DNA of 37,709 bases from a virus (lineage: Duplodnaviria; Caudoviricetes): positions 1-37,709 of IMG/VR virus record IMGVR_UViG_3300037515_000491; one strand, written 5' to 3'. Of the stretch, positions 3,316 through 34,222 are shown in pieces (within the stretch, counting starts at the first letter, position 1; each line of letters opens with the position of its first letter). Below the pieces are notes generated by a model that was not told the DNA's origin, did no database searches, and saw nothing but the letters and a program-made list of their open reading frames with translations. Made by a program: the position numbers and the translations under genes.

Positions 3316-4059
3316 ATGTTCGGGAAGCGGCTACTCAGATCCGTTCGGGATCGCTATCAAAGTCTTGGCAGCACGCAAAAAACTGCGGCAATTGTTACAG
3401 CGCCAATTATCATAACCTGCTGTTGTCTACTTGCTTATACGGCCGTAACGGGAGGGCCGCAAGTTACCGAAACCCCGTCGGCAGACATGCCGCTCGCTCT
3501 ATCTGAGAATCGATCCGGATCGAGCGCAGAACTAGCCACTTCAACTAGCGAGGCGACGGAAACGGCCGTTCCCACCAACACACCAGCACCAACAGAGACG
3601 CCGGCCCCAACCGATACGGCCGTTCCCACTCCCACCAATACGCCATCACCGACGCCGTTACCTACGGACACAGCCACCCCGCCGCCAACAAATACGCCAG
3701 AGCCAACCCTGCCACCGCCGCCCTCAGTGAATGACGTAAAAATCACCTACGTGAACTTCAATGGCGACATCAACCCCTCGGAACCCGATGAATACGCCGT
3801 TATTACCAATACCGGCGCGGGAACATTCAACCTGAATGGCTGGCGGCTGAACGCAGGCAACCCAGGCCAGGACTTCAATTTCCCAAACATCGACTTGGGG
3901 CCGGGGCAGGCTTGCCGCGTCTACACCAATGAGGTGCACCCGGAGAGCTGCGGCGGCGCTTCGTTCGGATCGGGAGGCGCGATCTGGTCAAACGATGGTG
4001 ACTGCGGTTATCTATTTGACAACACAGGAGCCGAGATATCCCGGTATTGCTACAACTAA
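3316..4059 (+). CDS. Membrane-anchored surface protein: TM helix, Pro/Thr-rich linker, C-terminal lamin-tail domain
   Basis: Hydrophobic N-terminal segment; PTxT repeats; DEYAVITNTG...NLNGWRL...IWSNDGDCGYLFD LTD motif. Confidence 0.8.
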   Translation: MFGKRLLRSVRDRYQSLGSTQKTAAIVTAPIIITCCCLLAYTAVTGGPQVTETPSADMPLALSENRSGSSAELATSTSEATETAVPTNTPAPTETPAPTDTAVPTPTNTPSPTPLPTDTATPPPTNTPEPTLPPPPSVNDVKITYVNFNGDINPSEPDEYAVITNTGAGTFNLNGWRLNAGNPGQDFNFPNIDLGPGQACRVYTNEVHPESCGGASFGSGGAIWSNDGDCGYLFDNTGAEISRYCYN

Positions 4060-12280: not shown

Positions 12281-13408
12281 ATGGACGCAACAGCGGTTTT
12301 GGCACTGGTAGGCGAATTAGACGGCAGCATCGACGGCTGCGCGGCCTGGCGTGTTTTCATGCCATTCGCCGAATTACAACGCCAGGGCTACCCGGCCGAA
12401 TGGGGTTTCATGGACGACGCGCGCCTGGCCGGCATCGTCCACCTGTTTGACGCTGTGATCATCCCGCGCCGGCATTGGCTGCCGGCCGATTGGGAAAAAG
12501 GCCGCCTATGGTTCCAGGCGCTGCACCGCGCCGGCATCGCCGTCATTTACGAAGTGGACGACGATATGTTCTCCGATGACTTCGTTCGCCGCCTGATTGT
12601 CACTCACGGCAAAGCGCCGGAAAAGGCGGAGGAAGTGCGGCGGTGTGTGCTGCACACGCTCAAGCAGGCCGATGGTGTGACCGTTTCCTCGCAGCGCCTG
12701 GCAACGATTGTGCGCCGGCTGACAGACAAACCGGTCGTCTCCGTCGCCAATTACATTGATTTGGAATGGTTCAGGGCCGTACAGCGCGAATCAAAGCGGG
12801 TTGTGCCTGGCCTGACCATCGGCTGGGCCGGTGGGGCGCGGCCTGACAGCGACGTGGCGCAAATGGCCGAAGCCTGGGGGCGGATTGCGCAGCGGTGGCC
12901 CGACGTGACGTTTGTGGTGCAGGGCCATCAGGCGCAGACGATTTATGACAACGTGCCCCACAACCGCATCGCCGCCGTGGACTGGCTGCCCGTTGACCAG
13001 TATCCGGCGGGCATGGTCAATATCGACATCGGCTGCTGCCCGCTCGGTGACAGCCCGTTCAATCGGGCCAAAACCTACATCAAGGCGCTGGAATACGCTG
13101 CCGGCGGCGCGGCCGTAGTCGCTTCCCCTACCGTTTACGGCCAGATTATCGAAAACGGCCGTGACGGGTACATTTGCCAAACGGCTGATGAGTGGGAAGC
13201 GGCGCTGGCGGAGCTGGTGGCCAGCACCAACCACCGCAAACGAATAGCGCAGCGGCTGCTGGCTAAAGTGGAAAAGCAGCACAGCCTGGCCGGCAACGCC
13301 TGGCGCTGGCCGGTGGCCTGGGGTGAGATTGTGACAGATTTTCGGCGGCGAACGGCGGCGCGGCGGATAGTGACCGCGCCGGGCCGCCGTATGAGGGTAC
13401 AGGTATGA
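12281..13408 (+). CDS. Glycosyltransferase, GT-B fold (GT4-like)
   Basis: VIYEVDDD, ADGVTVSS, IGWAG, DIGCCPL..SPFNRAKTYIKALEYAAGG..VVASP..Y. Confidence 0.88.
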   Translation: MDATAVLALVGELDGSIDGCAAWRVFMPFAELQRQGYPAEWGFMDDARLAGIVHLFDAVIIPRRHWLPADWEKGRLWFQALHRAGIAVIYEVDDDMFSDDFVRRLIVTHGKAPEKAEEVRRCVLHTLKQADGVTVSSQRLATIVRRLTDKPVVSVANYIDLEWFRAVQRESKRVVPGLTIGWAGGARPDSDVAQMAEAWGRIAQRWPDVTFVVQGHQAQTIYDNVPHNRIAAVDWLPVDQYPAGMVNIDIGCCPLGDSPFNRAKTYIKALEYAAGGAAVVASPTVYGQIIENGRDGYICQTADEWEAALAELVASTNHRKRIAQRLLAKVEKQHSLAGNAWRWPVAWGEIVTDFRRRTAARRIVTAPGRRMRVQV

Positions 13409-14253: not shown

Positions 14254-15575
14254 TGGCTATGACAGTGGCAGAAGCCCGGTCAGAGATTAAAAACCTCTTT
14301 GACCAGGCCGATTTAATCGAAAAAAAGTACCCTGACGGGCTGATCACCGATCAGGAAGACGAAACCGAAGTAAAACGACTTCTGGGCGAAATTGACGGCC
14401 TGGAAGAGAAGCTGGTTGGTCTGGAAGACGCGGAGCAGCGCCGCCAGCGGATTCTGGGCGGCATCGAACGCTATGGCAAGGCCGCGCCCAACGCGCAGCG
14501 CCCCGGCCAGCAGCGTGACGATCAGGAGCGCGGCCGCAGCATCAGCCCCGGCGATCAGTTTGTCCAGAGCCGGGAATATCGTGAGTTGAAATTAGGCGGG
14601 GCGTTCAACAGCGCCCTGGCCCGGGTCCAGTTCGCCATCAACCTCAAAGATGGCACGTCGCTGATTTTCTGGCGGCAGCAGTTGGCGCGGGAGCAAAAAG
14701 ACCTGGTCTATGGCTCGAGCGCCTCAGTCGGCGGCGGCTGGGTGGCCAACGACCGCCTGTCGGGTTATGTGGACATTTTGCAGCGGGAATTGACGATTCT
14801 GGACCTGATCCCCCGCCTGCAAACCGACAGCGACACGATTGAGTACGTCAAAGAGGACACCTTCACCAATGCCGCCGCCGCCGTGGCTGAAGCCAGCGCC
14901 ACGACCGGCACGAGCGGCCTCAAGCCCGAAAGCGCGTTGGCCTACAGCGTGGCCACCTCGCCCATTCGCACGATTGCCCACTGGGTTCCCGTGACGAACC
15001 GCATGCTATCCGACGCGCCGGCTATCCGGGGCATCATCAACAGCCGGCTCCTGTACGGCCTGGACCAGGAATTAGAGGATCAGGTATTAAGCGGCGACGG
15101 CACCGGCGAAAATCTGACCGGCATCCTGAACACGGGCGGCATCAACATTCAGGGCATGGGCAGCGACAACGCCGCCGACGCTCTGTTTAAGGGCCGTACG
15201 CAGGTCCGCGTCAACGGCCGTGGCCGGCCTAACGCCATTGTTCTGCACCCCAACGACTGGCAGGCCATCCGCCTGATGCGTGAAAACGCCGCCAGCGCCA
15301 CCCTGGGCAATTACCTGATGGGACCGCCGTCCATCATGGGACCGGTGACTGTCTGGGGTATCCCTGTGGTTGAATCCGACGGCATTACGGAGAATACCGG
15401 CCTCGTCGGTGATTTCGTCATGGGCGCGTCGTTGTTTGACCGGGAGCAGGGCAGCATCCGGGTGGGCACGATTGACGACCAATTCGTCAGAAATATGCAA
15501 ACGATTTTGGCTGAATTAAGAGCTGCGTTCGTAGTATTTCGTCCCGCATCTTTTACCAAAGTGACCGGGATCTAA
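14253..15575 (+). CDS. Major capsid protein, HK97 family
   Basis: N-terminal coiled-coil delta domain; KPES...TIAHWVPVT..ML.DAP...LSGDG.G.NL.GI...HPNDW...F.RNM.TILAE.R. Confidence 0.95.
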   Translation: MAMTVAEARSEIKNLFDQADLIEKKYPDGLITDQEDETEVKRLLGEIDGLEEKLVGLEDAEQRRQRILGGIERYGKAAPNAQRPGQQRDDQERGRSISPGDQFVQSREYRELKLGGAFNSALARVQFAINLKDGTSLIFWRQQLAREQKDLVYGSSASVGGGWVANDRLSGYVDILQRELTILDLIPRLQTDSDTIEYVKEDTFTNAAAAVAEASATTGTSGLKPESALAYSVATSPIRTIAHWVPVTNRMLSDAPAIRGIINSRLLYGLDQELEDQVLSGDGTGENLTGILNTGGINIQGMGSDNAADALFKGRTQVRVNGRGRPNAIVLHPNDWQAIRLMRENAASATLGNYLMGPPSIMGPVTVWGIPVVESDGITENTGLVGDFVMGASLFDREQGSIRVGTIDDQFVRNMQTILAELRAAFVVFRPASFTKVTGI

Positions 15576-16147
15576 TGATTATCGAACGGGAACGGGGCGC
15601 GGCGGCGGCGCCGCGCCCGTTCCTGAGTGTGCTGACGCGGTGTTACAGACGGCCATCATTTCTGGAGGCTAATGTGCAGTCGTTGAAGGATCAAAGCGAT
15701 CCCGATTACGAACAAATCTTTATCATTGATGACATCGGTCAAGGATTACACGCTGCCAACCGGGCGCTGGCCCTGCCGGCAGTCGAGGGCGCGTATGTAC
15801 TGGTCCTGGACGACGACGACAGACTGGACGATCCGGACGCGGTGGCACTGCTGAAAGAGGCAGCCGAAAAACAGCCAGAACTGCTGTTTTTCCGGGCCGA
15901 TCATGACCAATTGGGCATCCTGCCCGATGACAAGGTTTGGCAGCACCGGCCGTTACATGGCCGGGTGGGTTCGTGTGACTTCATCACCCGCTCCGACGTC
16001 TGGCAGCGGTTCGTTGCCCATTTCGCAATGCCCGAAAGCGGCGATTTTAACTTTTTGCACGCAGTCTGGGAAAGCGGCCCGTCCGTCGCCTGGCTGGATC
16101 GGCGGCTGGCGGCGGTGCAGCGCATATCAAAAGGAGCGCCTGAATGA
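15575..16147 (+). CDS. Glycosyltransferase, GT-A fold (GT2-like)
   Basis: FLSVLTRCY.RP..L..., EQIFIIDD, YVLVLDDDD (DxD), GDFNF. Confidence 0.85.
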   Translation: MIIERERGAAAAPRPFLSVLTRCYRRPSFLEANVQSLKDQSDPDYEQIFIIDDIGQGLHAANRALALPAVEGAYVLVLDDDDRLDDPDAVALLKEAAEKQPELLFFRADHDQLGILPDDKVWQHRPLHGRVGSCDFITRSDVWQRFVAHFAMPESGDFNFLHAVWESGPSVAWLDRRLAAVQRISKGAPE

Positions 16148-16983
16148 TAAAAGTAGCGATACTCTTACCAACAACCGGCCGGCCGGCGCAGATGACAGAC
16201 CGGGTCAGTGAGCTGGTTAACCAGCCCCTACCCGACGGCGTAGAGGCCACGGTCTATCTGTGCATCCCCGAAGTCGACACCCCGACCCTGAACGCGGCCA
16301 AAAAGATGGACGACGGCCCTATGAAAATCAAGATCGTTTTCGATCCGCCCGGCGCAACGGCCGTCAAAGCCTGGAACCGGGCGTATGCCGCCGCCGCCGA
16401 CGACGGGGCTGACTGGCTGGTATTGGGGGCTGATGACGCGGTCTGGCATCCGGGCTGGCTGGCGGCGGCGCTGCAAACGGCCAAAGAGACCGGGGCGGCC
16501 GTCGTTGGCCTGAACGATGGCCACAAGGACCTGGCACGGCAGGCATCGTATTTTCTGATGACAGCCGAATTTGCCGAGGTCGTTCTGGGCGGGGTTTTTA
16601 TCCCGCCTCATTACGGCTCCTGGTCATTTGACCGTGAAATATGCGAGCGGGCAATAGAGGCGGGGGCTTACGCGCCCTGCCATGAGGCGATGATTGAACA
16701 CACTCACCCGGAATGGGGTACGGCCGCGATGGATGACACTTACCGCAAAGGATATGCCCATCACATCAGGGACCGGCAGATTTACGAAACGCGCAAAGCG
16801 GCCGGCTGGCCGATGGATTATGAGCCGGTTGTTAAGCCGAAGTCAAAGCCAGCGGTTTTGAAACAACCAGCGGCGCAATCAAAGCCGGCGCCGGCAAAAG
16901 CTGAAGAATCAGCGACAGAAGAGCCGGCACCCAAACCAAAAGCCGCGCCGCGCAAAAGGAAATCAAAAGGAAAATCGACATGA
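16144..16983 (+). CDS. Glycosyltransferase, GT-A fold (GT2-like) with Lys/Pro/Ala-rich tail
   Basis: VAILLPTTGRP, AWN, LVLGADD, FDRE, IEHTHP..G.A.MDDTY. Confidence 0.82.
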   Translation: MIKVAILLPTTGRPAQMTDRVSELVNQPLPDGVEATVYLCIPEVDTPTLNAAKKMDDGPMKIKIVFDPPGATAVKAWNRAYAAAADDGADWLVLGADDAVWHPGWLAAALQTAKETGAAVVGLNDGHKDLARQASYFLMTAEFAEVVLGGVFIPPHYGSWSFDREICERAIEAGAYAPCHEAMIEHTHPEWGTAAMDDTYRKGYAHHIRDRQIYETRKAAGWPMDYEPVVKPKSKPAVLKQPAAQSKPAPAKAEESATEEPAPKPKAAPRKRKSKGKST

Positions 16984-17327
16984 ACGAAGTCACTTGCGCC
17001 GGCTGCGGCCGGCCGATTAAAAGCATGACGATCCAACCGGGGCAGGCAATGCCAGAGGTTTACCACCCCCAATGCCGCCCGCGCTCCAAGGCGCTGCGAA
17101 TAGAAGAAAACAAGATGCTGGTGACGCCTGAGGACAAGGCCGGCCTTGTAGCATTGCCGGGCATCGACAGCGAAATTGCCACAGCCTTGCACGCTGCCGG
17201 CTACAGCACAGAAGCGGCCGTGCGCGCCGCCAGTGACAAAGAACTGATTGATATTCCCGGCATTGGCGAGAAGCGGCTGGCGGATATTCGCGACGCGCTC
17301 AAAAAAGGGGCAAGGAAAAGTAAATGA
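16980..17327 (+). CDS. Helix-hairpin-helix protein with N-terminal Zn-ribbon-like motif
   Basis: CAGC...HPQC; LPGIDSEIA.AL.AAGY...ELIDIPGIGEKR. Confidence 0.7.
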   Translation: MNEVTCAGCGRPIKSMTIQPGQAMPEVYHPQCRPRSKALRIEENKMLVTPEDKAGLVALPGIDSEIATALHAAGYSTEAAVRAASDKELIDIPGIGEKRLADIRDALKKGARKSK

Positions 17328-23987: not shown

Positions 23988-24812
23988 ATGTCAGAATTTT
24001 CATATTGGTGGACTACAAGCGGTACACCATCAGGTGATCAAGTAGCAAGTTACACGCAGGCGCATCTGGCACGGATTGCGGCGGTGCTGGCGGCGTGCAG
24101 CGGGTTCGAGGGGGTGGCGCCCGGCTACCTGAACAGTCTGGCCGGCACAGTGACCGGGGCCAACACGGTGCAAATCAACACCGGCGGCGCGGTGGTTGAC
24201 GGCAAGGTTTATGACAGTGACTCGGCGGTAAACGTCAACATTCCGTCCGCTTCCGGCGGCGGTAATACGCGCATTGACCGGATTGTGCTGCGGGTAAGTT
24301 GGAGCGCCTTCACGGTCCGGATTACGCGCATTGCGGGCACGGACGCGGCCAGCCCGGCCGCGCCGGCGATTACGCAGACGAGCGGCACGACGTATGACAT
24401 TACGTTGTACCAGGCGCTGGTGAACACGAGCGGCACGGTGACGCTGACGGATGAGCGGACAGTGGCCAGCCTATTTACACATCGGCAAGGTGCGGATGCA
24501 ACAGATTGGGAAGAGGAAGGCGCGACGACGTACATCCCCGCCAATATGAGGATTCAAATGGGTGTGGCAGTCGTCGGGGTATTGGCCGGCGGAGCGGACT
24601 CGGGGAATATTGATGTTACATTCCCTATTCCTTTTGGAGGTACCAATGCCCCGCTGGTGGTTGGCAGTCCTTTTAGTGCTTTGTCAAGTAACGCGCATTT
24701 TTCTTACGGCATTGCAAGCTCGCAGGCGACGAAATTCACTGTGCGGGTTTACAACAACAGCGCATCTTCGTTTGAAGTGAACTTTTCATGGATAGCAATC
24801 GGACCCAGATAA
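23988..24812 (+). CDS. Minor tail / fibre-like protein with variable C-terminal domain
   Basis: RIDRIVLR N-terminal domain; C-terminal IQMG...VTFPIPF...WIAIG. Confidence 0.75.
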
Positions 24813-25189
24813 TGCAGATTTCACGGCGTGGGTTCCTGGGCGGTTTGGCAGCATTGGCAGCGGTAACGGCCGTGTCCCTACGCCGGGCCGGGCGCTATCT
24901 GTTGACGGCGGCCGGCCTGTGGGAAGTGCCGATGACAGTCCCGGTCGAGGTAGCGCATGGGGTTGTTGTACCGATTCCGACGAATACGGCCACGGCTACG
25001 CCCACGGTGACGGCCACGGCTACACCCACATTTACGCCAACCGCAACGGACACGCCCACAAGCACCCCCACTTCGACAAGCTCAGCGACCGCCACGGCTA
25101 CGGCGACGAATACCCCATCGGCCACCCCCACCCCAACGCCCGTACCGACCTACGAAACATATCTCCCCCTGGTGACAAATGGCGACTGA
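24812..25189 (+). CDS. Tat-signal, Thr/Pro-rich protein ending in a YLPLV motif
   Basis: [17 protein letters not shown] twin-Arg signal; TATATPT repeats; TYLPLV. Confidence 0.7.
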
Positions 25190-27066: not shown

Positions 27067-27088
27067 GTAGAGTGGAGAGTGATGAGTG

Positions 27089-27187
27089 ATGAGTAGGAAC
27101 GGCTGCCGGGCGCTGTTTTGGGGCGCTGTTTTGGGCGCGGCGGCGTGGGTGGTTTTGATTGCGATTTTGATTAACTACTGGAGGTAA
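27089..27187 (+). CDS. Small single-TM peptide (32 aa)
   Basis: MSRNGCRALFWGAVLGAAAWVVLIAILINYWR; TAATG coupling to next gene; not in ORF track. Confidence 0.5.
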   Translation: MSRNGCRALFWGAVLGAAAWVVLIAILINYWR

Positions 27188-27564
27188 TGATGTTTATTTC
27201 AATGATGTTATCTGTTTTGTTCCAACCGGCCGATTGGGGCGACCTGCCGGCCGTTCTGGTCTGGCTTTTTGCCGGGGGTGGCGGCACGGCCGTTCTGGCC
27301 TGGGCCATCAGCTATTTAGCCGAGCATTGGCCGGGCTGGCACGCGTTACCGGCGGTGGTGAAGTTTATTGTGCCGATTCTGGTTTCATTCGGCCTATCGG
27401 TGGCTGCTAACTACGCGCTCAATTACACCGAGCTTTTGGACCAGATCCAGCCCTACTGGCTCATGCTCGTCACGGCCGTGGCCGGTTGGATTGCGACGCA
27501 ATCCGGGCACGAGACGGCAAAAATCAGGGGCGTGAGCGCCCGCGCAAAGGCGCGGCTGCGGTAG
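27187..27564 (+). CDS. Holin-like multi-TM protein
   Basis: About three hydrophobic helices, basic C-terminus, GGAGGT RBS, post-tail position. Confidence 0.6.
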   Translation: MMFISMMLSVLFQPADWGDLPAVLVWLFAGGGGTAVLAWAISYLAEHWPGWHALPAVVKFIVPILVSFGLSVAANYALNYTELLDQIQPYWLMLVTAVAGWIATQSGHETAKIRGVSARAKARLR

Positions 27565-27566
27565 GA

Positions 27567-27866
27567 ATGCCCGACAGCAGCGACGCCGGCATTGACAGAG
27601 TTGTTCAGGAGTTGGAGCACCTCTGGATTCGCCTCGGCATGATTATGGCCATGCAAAGCCTGATCAATGCCGGCGTTGACGTCACGCGCGCGTTGGAGAA
27701 ATTGGGCGGGGAGCCGCCGCGCGACAATGAGGAATATCAGCGGCGGCACAGTGTCGTGATGGAGCGTGTCCGTTCTCAGTACCAGCAAGAGGAGCAGGAA
27801 ACGAAAAGGGCCATAGACGCCGCGAAAAAGATGCTGAGTGAGCGGGTGCGTGAGGCGAATGAATGA
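27567..27866 (+). CDS. Hypothetical helical protein
   Basis: In-frame ATG just after the holin-like stop; charged helical composition. Confidence 0.55.
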   Translation: MPDSSDAGIDRVVQELEHLWIRLGMIMAMQSLINAGVDVTRALEKLGGEPPRDNEEYQRRHSVVMERVRSQYQQEEQETKRAIDAAKKMLSERVREANE

Positions 27867-27869
27867 CCG

Positions 27870-28445
27870 GTGGAGCTGCAACTAGCGGCCATTCTGGTTA
27901 TCGCCCTTTCGCTGGTTGTTGCCGTCGCCGTCCGGCGTGGCGGGCCAAACCTCAGCGACCTGACCGAGGCGTACAATTCGCTGTCGCGGCGGGTGCGCGA
28001 GCTGGAAGCCGAGGGCACGGCCGACCGGGCGCAAATCCGCATCCTGGAAAAGCGGATTCAGGGGTTGGTGCGCATCCTCTCCCTGCTGGGCGATGGCCTG
28101 CGGGCGCTGAGCCATCAAATTATCGAATCGGGCGATTTGCCGCGCTGGGAGCCACCCAAAGAGGCCGAGGGCTGGCTGCATGGCTCACCGACCATACACG
28201 ACGAACTGGACAGCAATGGTCTGGCCGTGGCCGCGCATCAGATTCTATGGAAATCGTTTAGCTATGACGAGCTGGCCCAGCTGTGCTTCGAGGCCGCCAT
28301 CAACGCCGACGATTTGCCGCCCGGCCACCAAGCCAGGGCCAGGGAGATGGTTCTGCTGTTTAAGCGGGAGTGGCGGCTGCCGGAACTGGTCGAGATGATT
28401 AAAACGAAACGGCCTCACGTGCCATGGCCGATTATGGATGATTGA
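27870..28445 (+). CDS. TM + coiled-coil protein with C-terminal effector-associated domain (EAD7-like)
   Basis: N-terminal TM; heptads; FSYDELAQLCFEAAINADDLP...AREMV....R..RLPELV......RP.V.W matches my recollection of the EAD7 consensus. Confidence 0.7.
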   Translation: MELQLAAILVIALSLVVAVAVRRGGPNLSDLTEAYNSLSRRVRELEAEGTADRAQIRILEKRIQGLVRILSLLGDGLRALSHQIIESGDLPRWEPPKEAEGWLHGSPTIHDELDSNGLAVAAHQILWKSFSYDELAQLCFEAAINADDLPPGHQARAREMVLLFKREWRLPELVEMIKTKRPHVPWPIMDD

Positions 28446-28677
28446 CTACATAGCCGCGTTTGAGTTTCCTTTCTACTAATTTGCCGGCCAGTTCCTGCGC
28501 CGCCGCTTCCGATTCGGCCGGCCACGCCCGCACCTGCTGCGCCCCCGTCGTCCGACTGCCCCAGGCATAGACCACTGCTACGGTATCAAACAACGTCGGC
28601 TGCACCGTCACCATGTACCAGCGGTTCATATTCGTGTCAGGATCGACCTTCTTTAGCAAGACCATTGCCGTAATCAT
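28432..28677 (-). CDS. Stand-alone WGR-domain protein
   Basis: DP..NMNRWY...QPTLF......WG......K.KRGY. Confidence 0.8.
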   Translation of the reverse strand: MITAMVLLKKVDPDTNMNRWYMVTVQPTLFDTVAVVYAWGSRTTGAQQVRAWPAESEAAAQELAGKLVERKLKRGYVVNHP

Positions 28678-29586: not shown

Positions 29587-29786
29587 TCCTCCTCAGAAAC
29601 GGCCGTGTATCGCACAACTACCGCTTTTTCCAGCGTGACCATGTGCCCAGTTTGGCGGACGTGTCGCCTGATTTCGAGCCGTCCCTGCACCCTGTCCGCG
29701 CTATCCTCGTAACACCACTCGCAATCACAGCAAGCTGCTAAAAAATGAGGTATACCGATGTATTCGACCGCAACCTTTACCATCAC
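29583..29786 (-). CDS. Small C2H2-like zinc-binding protein
   Basis: CxxC (CCDC)...HVRQTGH. Confidence 0.6.
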   Translation of the reverse strand: MMVKVAVEYIGIPHFLAACCDCEWCYEDSADRVQGRLEIRRHVRQTGHMVTLEKAVVVRYTAVSEED

Positions 29787-31633
29787 ACCTCCTCAGAAAC
29801 GGCCGTTTCCACCGCTTCCAACTTATCACCCAACACCATTCGAATATCCCGCGCCGCCCGGTCCAGTTCCACACTCAAATCCAACATCTCCCCGGCCGGC
29901 AGCCCCGCCGCTTCAAACTCATCCCGCAGCGCGCTAATGGCCCGCCATGACGCCAGATGCTTATGCGTTGACCAGGTCCATTCCCGCGCCTCGTACCAAA
30001 AGCTCAGCCACAGCACCGCCCGATCCGCCAGGCTCAATTCCAGCACCGCCCGGGTAATGCCGCTGCGGTCCAACATGGCGGCGATTGTTTCAATTCCCTT
30101 CACCGGATCATCTGATGTGTACCCCAACCAACTGCCACGATCCCACAGCCATTTGGTGAAGGCGGTCAGCAGCTGCTCCTGATCGTCGGTCGTTTCAGCA
30201 TCGGCCGGCTGGACCAGCGCCATGATGACCCGAAATTCAAAAATATCATCGGCCAGGCATTCTTTGACGGCCTGACGGGCGCGGCGGCGGCACTGTGTCA
30301 ACAACTGCCCGCTGCGCTTTTTCCATCCCTTGATAGCGGCCTGGTCAGCAATATCCGGCGGCGGCGCGGCCTCGCCCGACTCGTCCACGTCGGGGATGAT
30401 GCCGGTTTTGTGGCCGATGCCTACCCCGCGACGGCCGTCACCATCATACAACTCGCCCACATAAACCCAATCGCTGTTATGAAACGGCCGTAACTGATTC
30501 CCAGCCGGCTGCCAACCAATGACCAGGTTATCGCGATGGCCCGCCTCATAATAGGCCCGCAATTTCTGGCGCAGCCTGTGGCTATCGAATAGGTCGAAAT
30601 CGGTAGCAGCGTCGCTGTAGGGCAGCCCCACTTCAGCCGCCGCCGCCCGCGCCGTTCGGACCCCATACCAATTCTTTTTAACCTTCAGGCAGCGAGGAGA
30701 CAGGCACGTCTCATTGATCCGGTTGGGGCAACCCTTGCAGCTCGTCAACTGGCCCTCTGGGATATGCTCAAATCCGGACTGAGTTAAATTAGAGCAGTCA
30801 AAATCAGCAATCGCGCCCGGCAGCGTTTGGCCGGCGTGTTGCAGCATCCGGTTCGTCATCTTGCGGACGTCGTCACTACTGACGCTTTCGCCGTTCTCGA
30901 TGACGTGCGCTATGTACACATCCGGCGCCGGCGGATTGCCATAACTGTGATCCGGCATGTGGCCAGCCCATTCAACGGCGCTACCATTCGCGATCTCCTG
31001 GATTTTAGCCACCCGGCCCAGATCCTGACACTGCCGGGCGCTCAATTGGCCGTGCCGGTTAGCCTCCTGGATTTCCGCCGGCAGCTTCAACAGCGCCATT
31101 GCATTGGCCACCGTCGCCCGCGCCAGGCCCCAAGCATCGGCCACGTCGCGCTGGCTGCCGCCGCTTGTTTTAGCCCGTTCATATTTGGTGGCAATGAGCA
31201 GTGCCCGATCCACGGCCGTGATGTCGCTGCGATCCTGATTTTCTGACCAGACCGAATCCAACATCTGATCATCGGTCAAATCGTCGATGTCCAGCGGCAT
31301 ATACCAGAACACGGCGTCGTACATCTGGCCGAACCGATTCAGGTGCTCAAATGCCCGTTTGCGGCGATGGCCAAACGCCAACTGGACCCGCCAGCCGGGC
31401 TTGAGATGATTGATTTCCTCCAGCCACTCATCCGGCTCCAGATTAGCCGCCGGAACCAAAAAACCATCGTCCCCGACCAGCCGGCCGCGCGGGACCTGCA
31501 TCAGGCCGCGCGTTTCCGGGTAATTGGGTTTGGCGGCGAGGATACGGCCGGCCAGTCCGGGAATGTCGTCGTAATCGCTGCGCTGCTGGTAGGGGTTGTC
31601 GTCAATTTGGTTAAGCGGTACATAAATTCTCAT
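29783..31633 (-). CDS. ParB/Spo0J-family protein with extended C-terminus
   Basis: IDDNPYQQR, GHRRKRA (GxxRxxA), ENQDRSDI, HTH SQRDVADAWGLARATVANAMALLKLP; later Cys cluster. Confidence 0.85.
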   Translation of the reverse strand: MRIYVPLNQIDDNPYQQRSDYDDIPGLAGRILAAKPNYPETRGLMQVPRGRLVGDDGFLVPAANLEPDEWLEEINHLKPGWRVQLAFGHRRKRAFEHLNRFGQMYDAVFWYMPLDIDDLTDDQMLDSVWSENQDRSDITAVDRALLIATKYERAKTSGGSQRDVADAWGLARATVANAMALLKLPAEIQEANRHGQLSARQCQDLGRVAKIQEIANGSAVEWAGHMPDHSYGNPPAPDVYIAHVIENGESVSSDDVRKMTNRMLQHAGQTLPGAIADFDCSNLTQSGFEHIPEGQLTSCKGCPNRINETCLSPRCLKVKKNWYGVRTARAAAAEVGLPYSDAATDFDLFDSHRLRQKLRAYYEAGHRDNLVIGWQPAGNQLRPFHNSDWVYVGELYDGDGRRGVGIGHKTGIIPDVDESGEAAPPPDIADQAAIKGWKKRSGQLLTQCRRRARQAVKECLADDIFEFRVIMALVQPADAETTDDQEQLLTAFTKWLWDRGSWLGYTSDDPVKGIETIAAMLDRSGITRAVLELSLADRAVLWLSFWYEAREWTWSTHKHLASWRAISALRDEFEAAGLPAGEMLDLSVELDRAARDIRMVLGDKLEAVETAVSEEV

Positions 31634-33244: not shown

Positions 33245-34222
33245 CTATTTCGCCTCGCTTCGACGCTGCGCCTGCATCAACCCCAACTTGTACAGCCCGC
33301 GCGCGATACTCATTACCGGCTGCTCCGGAACAACCGCCCGGCCGGCAAAATCCAACTGGCCGTTCAGAATCAACGCGCCACCGCCAACAACGACGATGGA
33401 GGCAAATCGCCGCCAGGCCCGGCCCCAGGTTCGTTCAATCGCCCCTGAAACCTCTCTGGCCCAAACAGGAACGGCCGTTTTAATATCCAGGCTGCCGGCG
33501 CGTAACTGGCCGTCCAACTCACCCAAACTATACAACCCGTCCCCGTTGACCAATTCTAACAGCCGCCGCGCCCCGGACGTGGACCCGGCCGTGAACCGGT
33601 TGACGGGCCGCGTGTCCTGGACTACCAAAAGTTCGACCGTGTTGAATCCCACGCTGACGATACCAATTTCTTTTTTGATGTGGGCCTTGCGTTCGGGGAT
33701 AAAACGCCCGTCGCCATCGAGCAGATAATCGAACAACGCCCCGGCCGCCTGGCTCGTTACCCGCGCCTCGTCGACCACCAACCGGTACGGCTCGCCATCG
33801 GCCAGCCATTCATGCCCGCCCACCATCCAGCTCCGCACCGCTGCCACCGTCTGCCCGGCATCCTCACCGGTCAGCGGCTCTAACGGCATCCCTACCAGGA
33901 GTGTGACCGGTTCAAAGTTGGAGCCGCCCTGCTGGAGGTAACGGGTCAGTGCCCCGTAGAAGATGGCCAGCATTTCCGGGCTGCCGGTCAAGCGGTCATA
34001 ATCCACGCTCTCGATAGGACGCCCAAAATCATGCGCCCCATCGCCCACGTAAAACGAATGCCCGCCCACCGCGATTTTCAGCGGCGGCTTGCGGCTGCGC
34101 ATTCCGGCCAGCCGGCCGACGATACGGCCGTCGGCTATTGATACGTGAGATGGTAAATGGACCATCCCGGCCGGGCCGGCTAATTTGCAGGCCCCCATTC
34201 CTAAATCTACGCCGATAAACAT
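33245..34222 (-). CDS. Actin-like ParM/StbA-family ATPase
   Basis: Phosphate-1 GVDLGMGACK, connect-1 SQAAGA, phosphate-2 VSVGFNTVE, adenosine VVGGGA, ARGLYK. Confidence 0.88.
   Translation of the reverse strand: MFIGVDLGMGACKLAGPAGMVHLPSHVSIADGRIVGRLAGMRSRKPPLKIAVGGHSFYVGDGAHDFGRPIESVDYDRLTGSPEMLAIFYGALTRYLQQGGSNFEPVTLLVGMPLEPLTGEDAGQTVAAVRSWMVGGHEWLADGEPYRLVVDEARVTSQAAGALFDYLLDGDGRFIPERKAHIKKEIGIVSVGFNTVELLVVQDTRPVNRFTAGSTSGARRLLELVNGDGLYSLGELDGQLRAGSLDIKTAVPVWAREVSGAIERTWGRAWRRFASIVVVGGGALILNGQLDFAGRAVVPEQPVMSIARGLYKLGLMQAQRRSEAK

Follow-up and report, generated by a model that had tools for sequence, protein, structure and literature searches.

The last gene of the late operon of a phage genome encodes a 191-aa protein in which two parts of known kinds appear to be joined in a new way: an anchored coiled-coil scaffold, likely a holin partner with a LysF1b-like role in lysis, carries at its C-terminal tip the immune adaptor domain EAD7. 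Our leading reading, a tentative one given less than even odds, is that this lysis-cassette protein sequesters EAD7 sensors or effectors of the host through its tip late in infection. The window, by which the whole stretch of DNA analysed is meant, is the whole IMG/VR virus record IMGVR_UViG_3300037515_000491, a linear sequence of 37,709 bases that is about 90% complete. Pfam and PHROGs searches identified an integrase gene as well as genes for terminase, portal, capsid, tape measure and tail proteins, and by this gene content the phage is tailed and temperate. The EAD7 gene closes the + strand block running from terminase to tail, as had been read from the letters alone, and is presumably expressed late; its GTG start lies three bases past the stop codon of the preceding gene, and GC skew switches sign near 28 kb (coordinates in Table 1). 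Next, on the - strand, comes an ORF for a protein with a WGR domain only (28432-28677), convergent with the EAD7 gene and overlapping its end by 14 bases.

Table 1. Positions in the window of the EAD7 gene, its parts and its upstream neighbours.
Feature	Position	Strand	Basis or remark
Gene for anchor, coiled coil and EAD7	27870..28445	+	191 aa, last gene of the late operon
Hydrophobic segment, aa 3-21, then RR	27876..27932	+	Hydropathy 2.83; single; predicted N-out/C-in anchor
Long predicted helix, aa 28-86, coiled-coil-like scaffold, known also without EAD7	27951..28127	+	AlphaFold2 model
Conserved scaffold end motif Q-x4-G-x2-P-x-W, aa 83-93	28116..28148	+	Alignments
EAD7 domain, aa 123-182, four long helices in model	28236..28415	+	Pfam PF19960, E 3.7e-11, 43.1 bits
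99-aa charged protein, immediately upstream (longest frame from 27486)	27567..27866	+	No family above cut-off
125-aa hydrophobic protein, holin-like by hydrophobicity and position only	27187..27564	+	No family match
33-aa hydrophobic ORF overlapping start of holin-like gene; gene status doubtful	27086..27187	+	Hydrophobicity

EAD7, which the sequence-only reading had placed in the C-terminal part, was confirmed by HMM search: the Pfam model (PF19960) matched at 43.1 bits against a cut-off of 32, over model positions 2-62 of 62. A six-frame search of the phage record returned the same single EAD7 match (44.5 bits), and the same search on 14 control genomes returned none. Besides EAD7, the protein had no family match in Pfam, PHROGs or PADLOC, and NCBIfam gave a weak coiled-coil match alone, far under cut-off. 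The AlphaFold2 model of the full protein (27-row alignment; mean pLDDT 84, pTM 0.46) consists of a helix at residues 2-22, a helix at 28-86 and a confident C-terminal bundle at 111-180, which agrees with the proposed order of membrane anchor, coil and EAD7. Residues 23-95 are 30% KRDE, and oligomerisation through the coil would be expected. By the positive-inside rule the predicted topology is N-out/C-in; more K/R residues follow the anchor than precede it in 30 of 32 family members, so the EAD7 tip is predicted to be cytoplasmic, the side on which the sequence-only reading needed it.

The isolated EAD7 domain was modelled as an all-helical, C-terminal unit of four long helices (pLDDT 88). In a VIA fold search with this domain (48,161 chains), the 11 best matches were to domains of the CARD, pyrin or bacterial death-like kind, with Z 7.0-7.9, rmsd 2.3-3.2 and 69-79 residues aligned (by the tool's guidance, Z below 8 may reflect a common arrangement). 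Among them was a bacterial death-like domain, 8ss1, from the work of Wein et al. 2023 (PMC10312443; Z 7.4); SAP domains followed at Z 6.2-6.9. Foldseek gave no match under E 0.001, its top match being a CARD chain (probability 0.80, E 0.49). The best VIA matches belong to the death-fold superfamily (CARD, PYD, DD, DED; bDLD1-3), from which the model differs in having four long helices where the death fold has six, and in its Z scores below 8. EAD7 has been described as all-helical and distant kin of EAD1 and EAD6 (Kaur et al. 2020, PMC7159879); the passage of that paper naming Death-like members gives bDLD1/EAD3 and bDLD2, a list from which EAD7 is absent, and the corresponding part of Kaur et al. 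2021 (PMC8195603) speaks of structural parallels. The label death-fold-like that had been given to the tip is fair as a statement of moderate resemblance, with CARD and pyrin domains as nearest folds at Z up to 7.9, and is not carried further to superfamily membership.

The phage domain resembles described EAD7 in matching 61 of the 62 model positions and in being terminal, all-helical and free of enzymatic features. In the copies described so far, EAD7 is joined to core components, effectors or signalling domains of cellular conflict systems, often in pairs (PMC7159879, PMC8195603), whereas the phage copy is the lone EAD7 of its record and sits on a lysis-cassette membrane scaffold. With a single EAD7 match in about 90% of a genome, the phage does not by itself make up an EAD-coupled conflict system in the sense of Kaur et al. 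(2020), and any EAD7 partner would be the host's; such hosts exist, as described below for genome G135.

The scaffold is found without EAD7. A profile search with the N-terminal part returned 15 proteins (five of them in the query), nine with EAD7 and six without. The EAD7-less relatives known from all searches include P0126, P0154, P0158, L001, L139 and L140, and several EAD7-less relatives terminate shortly past the Q-x4-G-x2-P-x-W motif. At EAD7-less loci L001, L139/L146 and L140/L145 the gene directly adjoins a holin-like gene, and at L145 an M23 endolysin is encoded further along. EAD7-less relatives also match PHROG lysis families (e.g. phrog_739, E 3e-6), matches that coiled-coil composition could explain. 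By topology and setting, not by sequence homology, the scaffold can be likened to LysF1b of mycobacteriophages, which is required for efficient lysis and has one N-terminal segment, N-out/C-in topology and a charged cytoplasmic helix (Pollenz et al. 2026, PMC13056207). Common to both are a single N-terminal membrane segment with basic residues behind it, the predicted N-out/C-in orientation and a long charged helix (PMC13056207). LysF1b-type genes adjoin a 2- or 4-pass holin-like gene in a lysis cassette, and the EAD7 gene has a candidate for such a small multi-pass membrane gene nearby. They differ in that one gene separates the EAD7 gene from the holin-like gene, so that the hydrophobic gene of the window stands two places upstream and has no holin family match, whereas relatives adjoin matched holins; in the window cassette there is also no recognised endolysin, EAD7 is extra and the host phylum is another. 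Because anchor and coil are also found next to holin-like genes in forms lacking EAD7, and share the LysF1b topology, EAD7 is best seen as an add-on to a likely lysis protein. For the same reason the earlier comparison with adaptor-only proteins of the vFLIP or phage CARD-only type was given up, since anchor and coil make up a lysis-cassette family of their own.

The two neighbours upstream are less well placed. The 125-aa holin-like protein was without match in Pfam, PHROG and NCBIfam and was also unmatched by a profile built from five holin-like neighbours in related loci; no relatives of it were found in the viral contigs searched. The 99-aa protein had a weak match to the PHROG 'Rz-like spanin' (E 0.0025) and none in the ESM Atlas.

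Fused relatives were collected by several searches. Using phmmer against 1.84 billion representatives, 639 matches were obtained, and among the best 150 at least 25 others combine coil, Q-x4-G-x2-P-x-W motif and EAD7; these further members are about 25-40% identical. P0071 and P0072 were left out of the family, as their N-terminal parts differ; P0005 has no anchor. The ESM Atlas returned three mostly viral clusters with EAD7, of 53-79 members each. Word-index homologue searches gave two relatives only, a tblastn search of the whole protein against 50,697 GenBank phage records gave none, chance matches made up 10 of 14 matches in one pattern search and 26 of 62 in another, and further searches found EAD7 in only 5 of 242 loci, one of them previously found.

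DNA was available for eight other intact fused loci (L004, L008/L141, L070, L111, L112, L147, L167 and L247). With the window included, a small membrane-protein gene is adjacent or at most three genes off in at least eight of the nine, L070 being the ninth; holin families were matched above cut-off at L111 (Phage_holin_9) and L247 (Phage_holin_6_1). Phage helical proteins carry EAD7 in three layouts in total, the other two being coil-EAD7 without anchor (L074, P0104) and EAD7-coil-anchor (L006). The L006 protein (L006:9965-10390, +), with an N-terminal host-like EAD7, a coil and a C-terminal anchor, is flanked by a holin-like gene on one side and a gene for a C39-type endolysin on the other; this reversed layout is likely an independent capture. 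At three loci the EAD7 gene is separated from the holin-like gene by one for a beta-helix-type protein of 480-540 aa (L004:10174-11622, L141:5797-7272 and L111:13316-14944), and a related N-terminal part belongs to a 1384-aa PKD protein of L147. It is likely a polysaccharide-degrading enzyme; as a candidate substitute lysin (cassettes of L004, L008 and L111) it was set aside, since L147 has the related beta-helix-like protein together with a GH25 endolysin.

EAD7 is out of frame at L012, L074 and L149, and P0180 is truncated within the domain. At L012 (5702-6144, +) and L074 (7865-8340, -) EAD7 lies in the -1 frame relative to the coil, and the sole in-register slippery heptamer of each gene sits where a -1 shift enters EAD7; at L012 a stop follows three codons past the heptamer, and a heptamer of this kind is absent from 12 other genes. 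A programmed frameshift yielding forms with and without EAD7 is possible at both loci. Since the slippery site of L074 consists of a run of A, it could stem from misassembly, and the hairpin behind the L012 site was not significant (z -1.5).

The host of the phage is presumably a member of the Chloroflexota, a placement taken from the EAD7 protein family and not from the phage itself, whose terminase had distant matches only and whose capsid, searched against 201 class genomes, went unmatched at E 1e-60. In a GTDB pattern scan, 36 of 62 loci held true EAD7, and all 36 were from Chloroflexota by title, as against none of the 26 chance matches. Five Chloroflexota genomes contained 8-44 EAD7 matches each, so the likely hosts do carry EAD7 proteins, as the sequence-only reading required, and many of them. 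The distribution is patchy, with EAD7 in 6 of 151 genomes of the phylum and 22 of 201 of the class (for the class, any match at E 1e-16, with at most 29 candidates scored per genome).

Genome G135 has 24 EAD7 matches, three of them in genes of the fused family, which belong to three different prophages with one member each (C1 near 2.59 and 3.81 Mb, and C3; loci L111, L112 and L141). Fusion partners of its other EAD7s are nSTAND1, TIR with FGE-sulfatase, EAD8, SH3 and HhH, and the EAD8 fusion adjoins an EAD8-trypsin gene; among 78 other EAD7 proteins, taken without genome context, the partners of EAD7 included STAND NTPases, CHAT, TIR, trypsin, SAVED and Roc-COR. All three genomes with an EAD7-fused prophage gene hold at least 11 other EAD7 matches each, and the two with an EAD7-less scaffold hold 0 and 1 (Fisher p 0.10 for three versus two genomes). 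Set against the 9 of 200 class genomes with at least five EAD7 copies, the fused hosts gave p 1.6e-4, the genomes being few and not independent. This correlation may reflect opportunity, because EAD7 can be captured only where it is present, and kin are not independent.

For comparison of the domains, 39 phage-type and 374 other EAD7s were labelled by architecture, the P entries being without context. The phage-type domains keep the host-type core (F 97%, E 97% and R of the RP motif 100%) and cluster on the tree (17 changes versus 34 when shuffled); a single origin of the fused domain was not rejected (p-AU 0.44), and the 69-column tree cannot separate one capture from several. The EAD7 of the window shares 46-49% identity with the host-type domains closest to it; with its near-copy P0002 set aside, the closest phage-type domain reaches 40%, a hint of re-capture that lies beyond the resolution of the tree. 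On the tree it falls near host-type rows, the nearest of which were added on purpose.

As to how the protein might act, the scaffold would do its lysis job as a holin partner, and EAD7 tips, made late and clustered on the membrane, would soak up the sensors and effectors of the host that carry EAD7. Such a sink would keep abortive death of the host from pre-empting the lysis clock while capsid, portal and terminase proteins accumulate. Viral decoy adaptors are known, vFLIP being one. The precedent for the sink is pCARD, a phage CARD-only protein by which a gasdermin system of bacteria is inhibited (Wein et al. 2023, PMC10312443). Binding of phage EAD7 to host EAD7, with inhibition rather than triggering as its outcome, is putative. 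Like pCARD, viral pyrin-only proteins and vFLIPs, the protein is a virus-encoded death-fold-like adaptor without an enzyme and akin to immune adaptors of the host. pCARD differs in being a single-domain protein, encoded beside the defence-triggering gene rIIAB, for which inhibition was tested (PMC10312443), whereas the 191-aa protein is membrane-anchored, belongs to the late operon and to another adaptor family, and has a scaffold that is likely functional in its own right. Among the points against the sink, the known phage decoy is a small single-domain protein and not a lysis-cassette membrane fusion, and the prophage EAD7s of G135 are no closer to the copies of their own host than to others (mean identity 0.28 versus 0.27, 0.30 versus 0.30 and 0.33 versus 0.32). 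Homotypic binding and anti-phage function of EADs are themselves predictions in the source papers (PMC7159879, PMC8195603).

That phage EAD7s do not track those of their host would also suit a captured self-assembly module, whose tips would attach to one another and gather the lysis protein in the membrane with no host partner, an account that we regard as a minor but real possibility. The filament-forming CARD and pyrin domains among the nearest folds favour it, as do scaffold and EAD7 identities, which correlate over the 26 members compared (Mantel rho 0.25, p 0.004), and the compatibility of the tree with a single origin. The scaffold without EAD7, present in many phages, already has a long coil, and the fused forms were found in EAD7-rich hosts only, with the host-type core fully kept, which argues for a host partner and against self-assembly alone.

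Fusion to a late-operon lysis-cassette protein is needless for a pure decoy, and this speaks for a coupling of lysis to immunity, in which activated EAD7 assemblies of the host would cluster the lysis protein and bring lysis early, or the tips would switch on TIR or protease effectors of the host at lysis. Membrane clustering is the usual route by which death-fold adaptors activate effectors. LysF1b-type proteins take part in triggering (PMC13056207), and the two split loci, L012 and L074, could yield forms with and without EAD7. Coupling of this kind would help holin and endolysin, not replace them. We give it slightly less credit than self-assembly; reliance on a host system as variable and patchy as EAD7 would be risky, and activation of TIR or protease effectors before assembly is done would reduce the burst.

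The integrase of the phage, the presence of three such genes in one lysogen and the existence of host-type EAD7 proteins with membrane segments (P0071, P0151 and P0065) would fit a protein made in the lysogen as a membrane effector of the host EAD7 network against superinfecting phages. The gene is, against this, tightly coupled to the late genes with no gap for a promoter of its own; a consensus scan, weak for Chloroflexota, gave no promoter-like site just upstream, and PADLOC had no match. Defence in the lysogen is improbable.

The sequence-only reading had also proposed that the protein sets off timed cell death as a stand-in for an endolysin, and no endolysin family (Pfam, PHROGs) was recognised among the 52 window ORFs scanned. 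Only one of nine intact fused loci has a recognised endolysin among the chosen ORFs scanned (three loci being short contigs). At that one locus, L147, the fusion and a holin-like gene occur together with a GH25 endolysin that has modules in common with the M23 endolysin of EAD7-less L145; L006 has an EAD7 protein with a C39-type endolysin, and mraY is kept in all five Chloroflexota genomes tested, so that the wall likely still must be cut. The fusion is therefore no general endolysin substitute, replacement as a rule is contradicted by L147, and this reading is very improbable. Just as little credit is given to EAD7 as a passenger without selected role: the scaffold does exist without it and the domain is disrupted at the three out-of-frame loci and in P0180, but dozens of members keep its core intact although their mutual identity is only about 33%, and in one pair EAD7 is 100% identical beside a linker of 57% identity.

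Signs of selection on the domain were otherwise mixed. In some close pairs EAD7 and coil are conserved to about the same degree (91 versus 92%, 100 versus 91% and 99 versus 98%), in others EAD7 is the less conserved (90 versus 95%, 51 versus 80% and 40 versus 46%), and no consistent sign of an arms race emerged from the pairs compared, a further point against the sink.

Beyond the sink, it can be speculated, as a chance well on the low side, that Chloroflexota phages have wired their lysis clock into death-fold signalling of the host, with a holin partner that displays EAD7 and reads or jams STAND, TIR or protease assemblies, and with some phages tuning the dose by a -1 frameshift. If true, the control of lysis by phages would here meet inflammasome-like immunity of bacteria directly, and the junction would offer a natural way of probing whether EAD networks serve against phages. 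In multicellular bacteria, conflict systems wired by EADs have to date been described as genome-based predictions (PMC7159879, PMC8195603); the keeping of EAD7 by phage proteins only about a third identical, in EAD7-rich hosts, is indirect evidence that EAD networks act on phages. The family is also a ready reagent for EAD7-EAD7 binding, G135 alone holding three phage and about 20 host copies. In the openly accessible papers searched, an EAD7 fused to a lysis-cassette protein of a phage was not found described; the available parts of PMC13581612, bioRxiv 2024.11.07.622273 and PMC10910872 mention EADs in passing only, and two supplementary files of PMC7159879 do not contain 'EAD7', while its source-data files may list phage EAD7 neighbourhoods.

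Several further features of the window were recorded. Three glycosyltransferase genes and a helix-hairpin-helix gene lie inside the head module (12281-13408, 15575-16147, 16144-16983 and 16980-17327), and glycosylation of the capsid is possible on this gene content. Amid the tail genes, the protein encoded at 24788-25189 has a TAT-like signal (below cut-off), Thr/Pro repeats and a C-terminal YLPLV, an ending that we take to be typical of secreted proteins of Chloroflexota. A membrane-anchored protein with a lamin-tail domain is encoded near the integrase in two phages (window 3316-4059; L006:6209-7042), with lysogenic conversion or superinfection exclusion as possible roles. ParB-like and actin-like partition genes are present alongside the integrase (29783-31633, 33245-34222 and 1519-2523), a combination that suggests both plasmid and integrated states.
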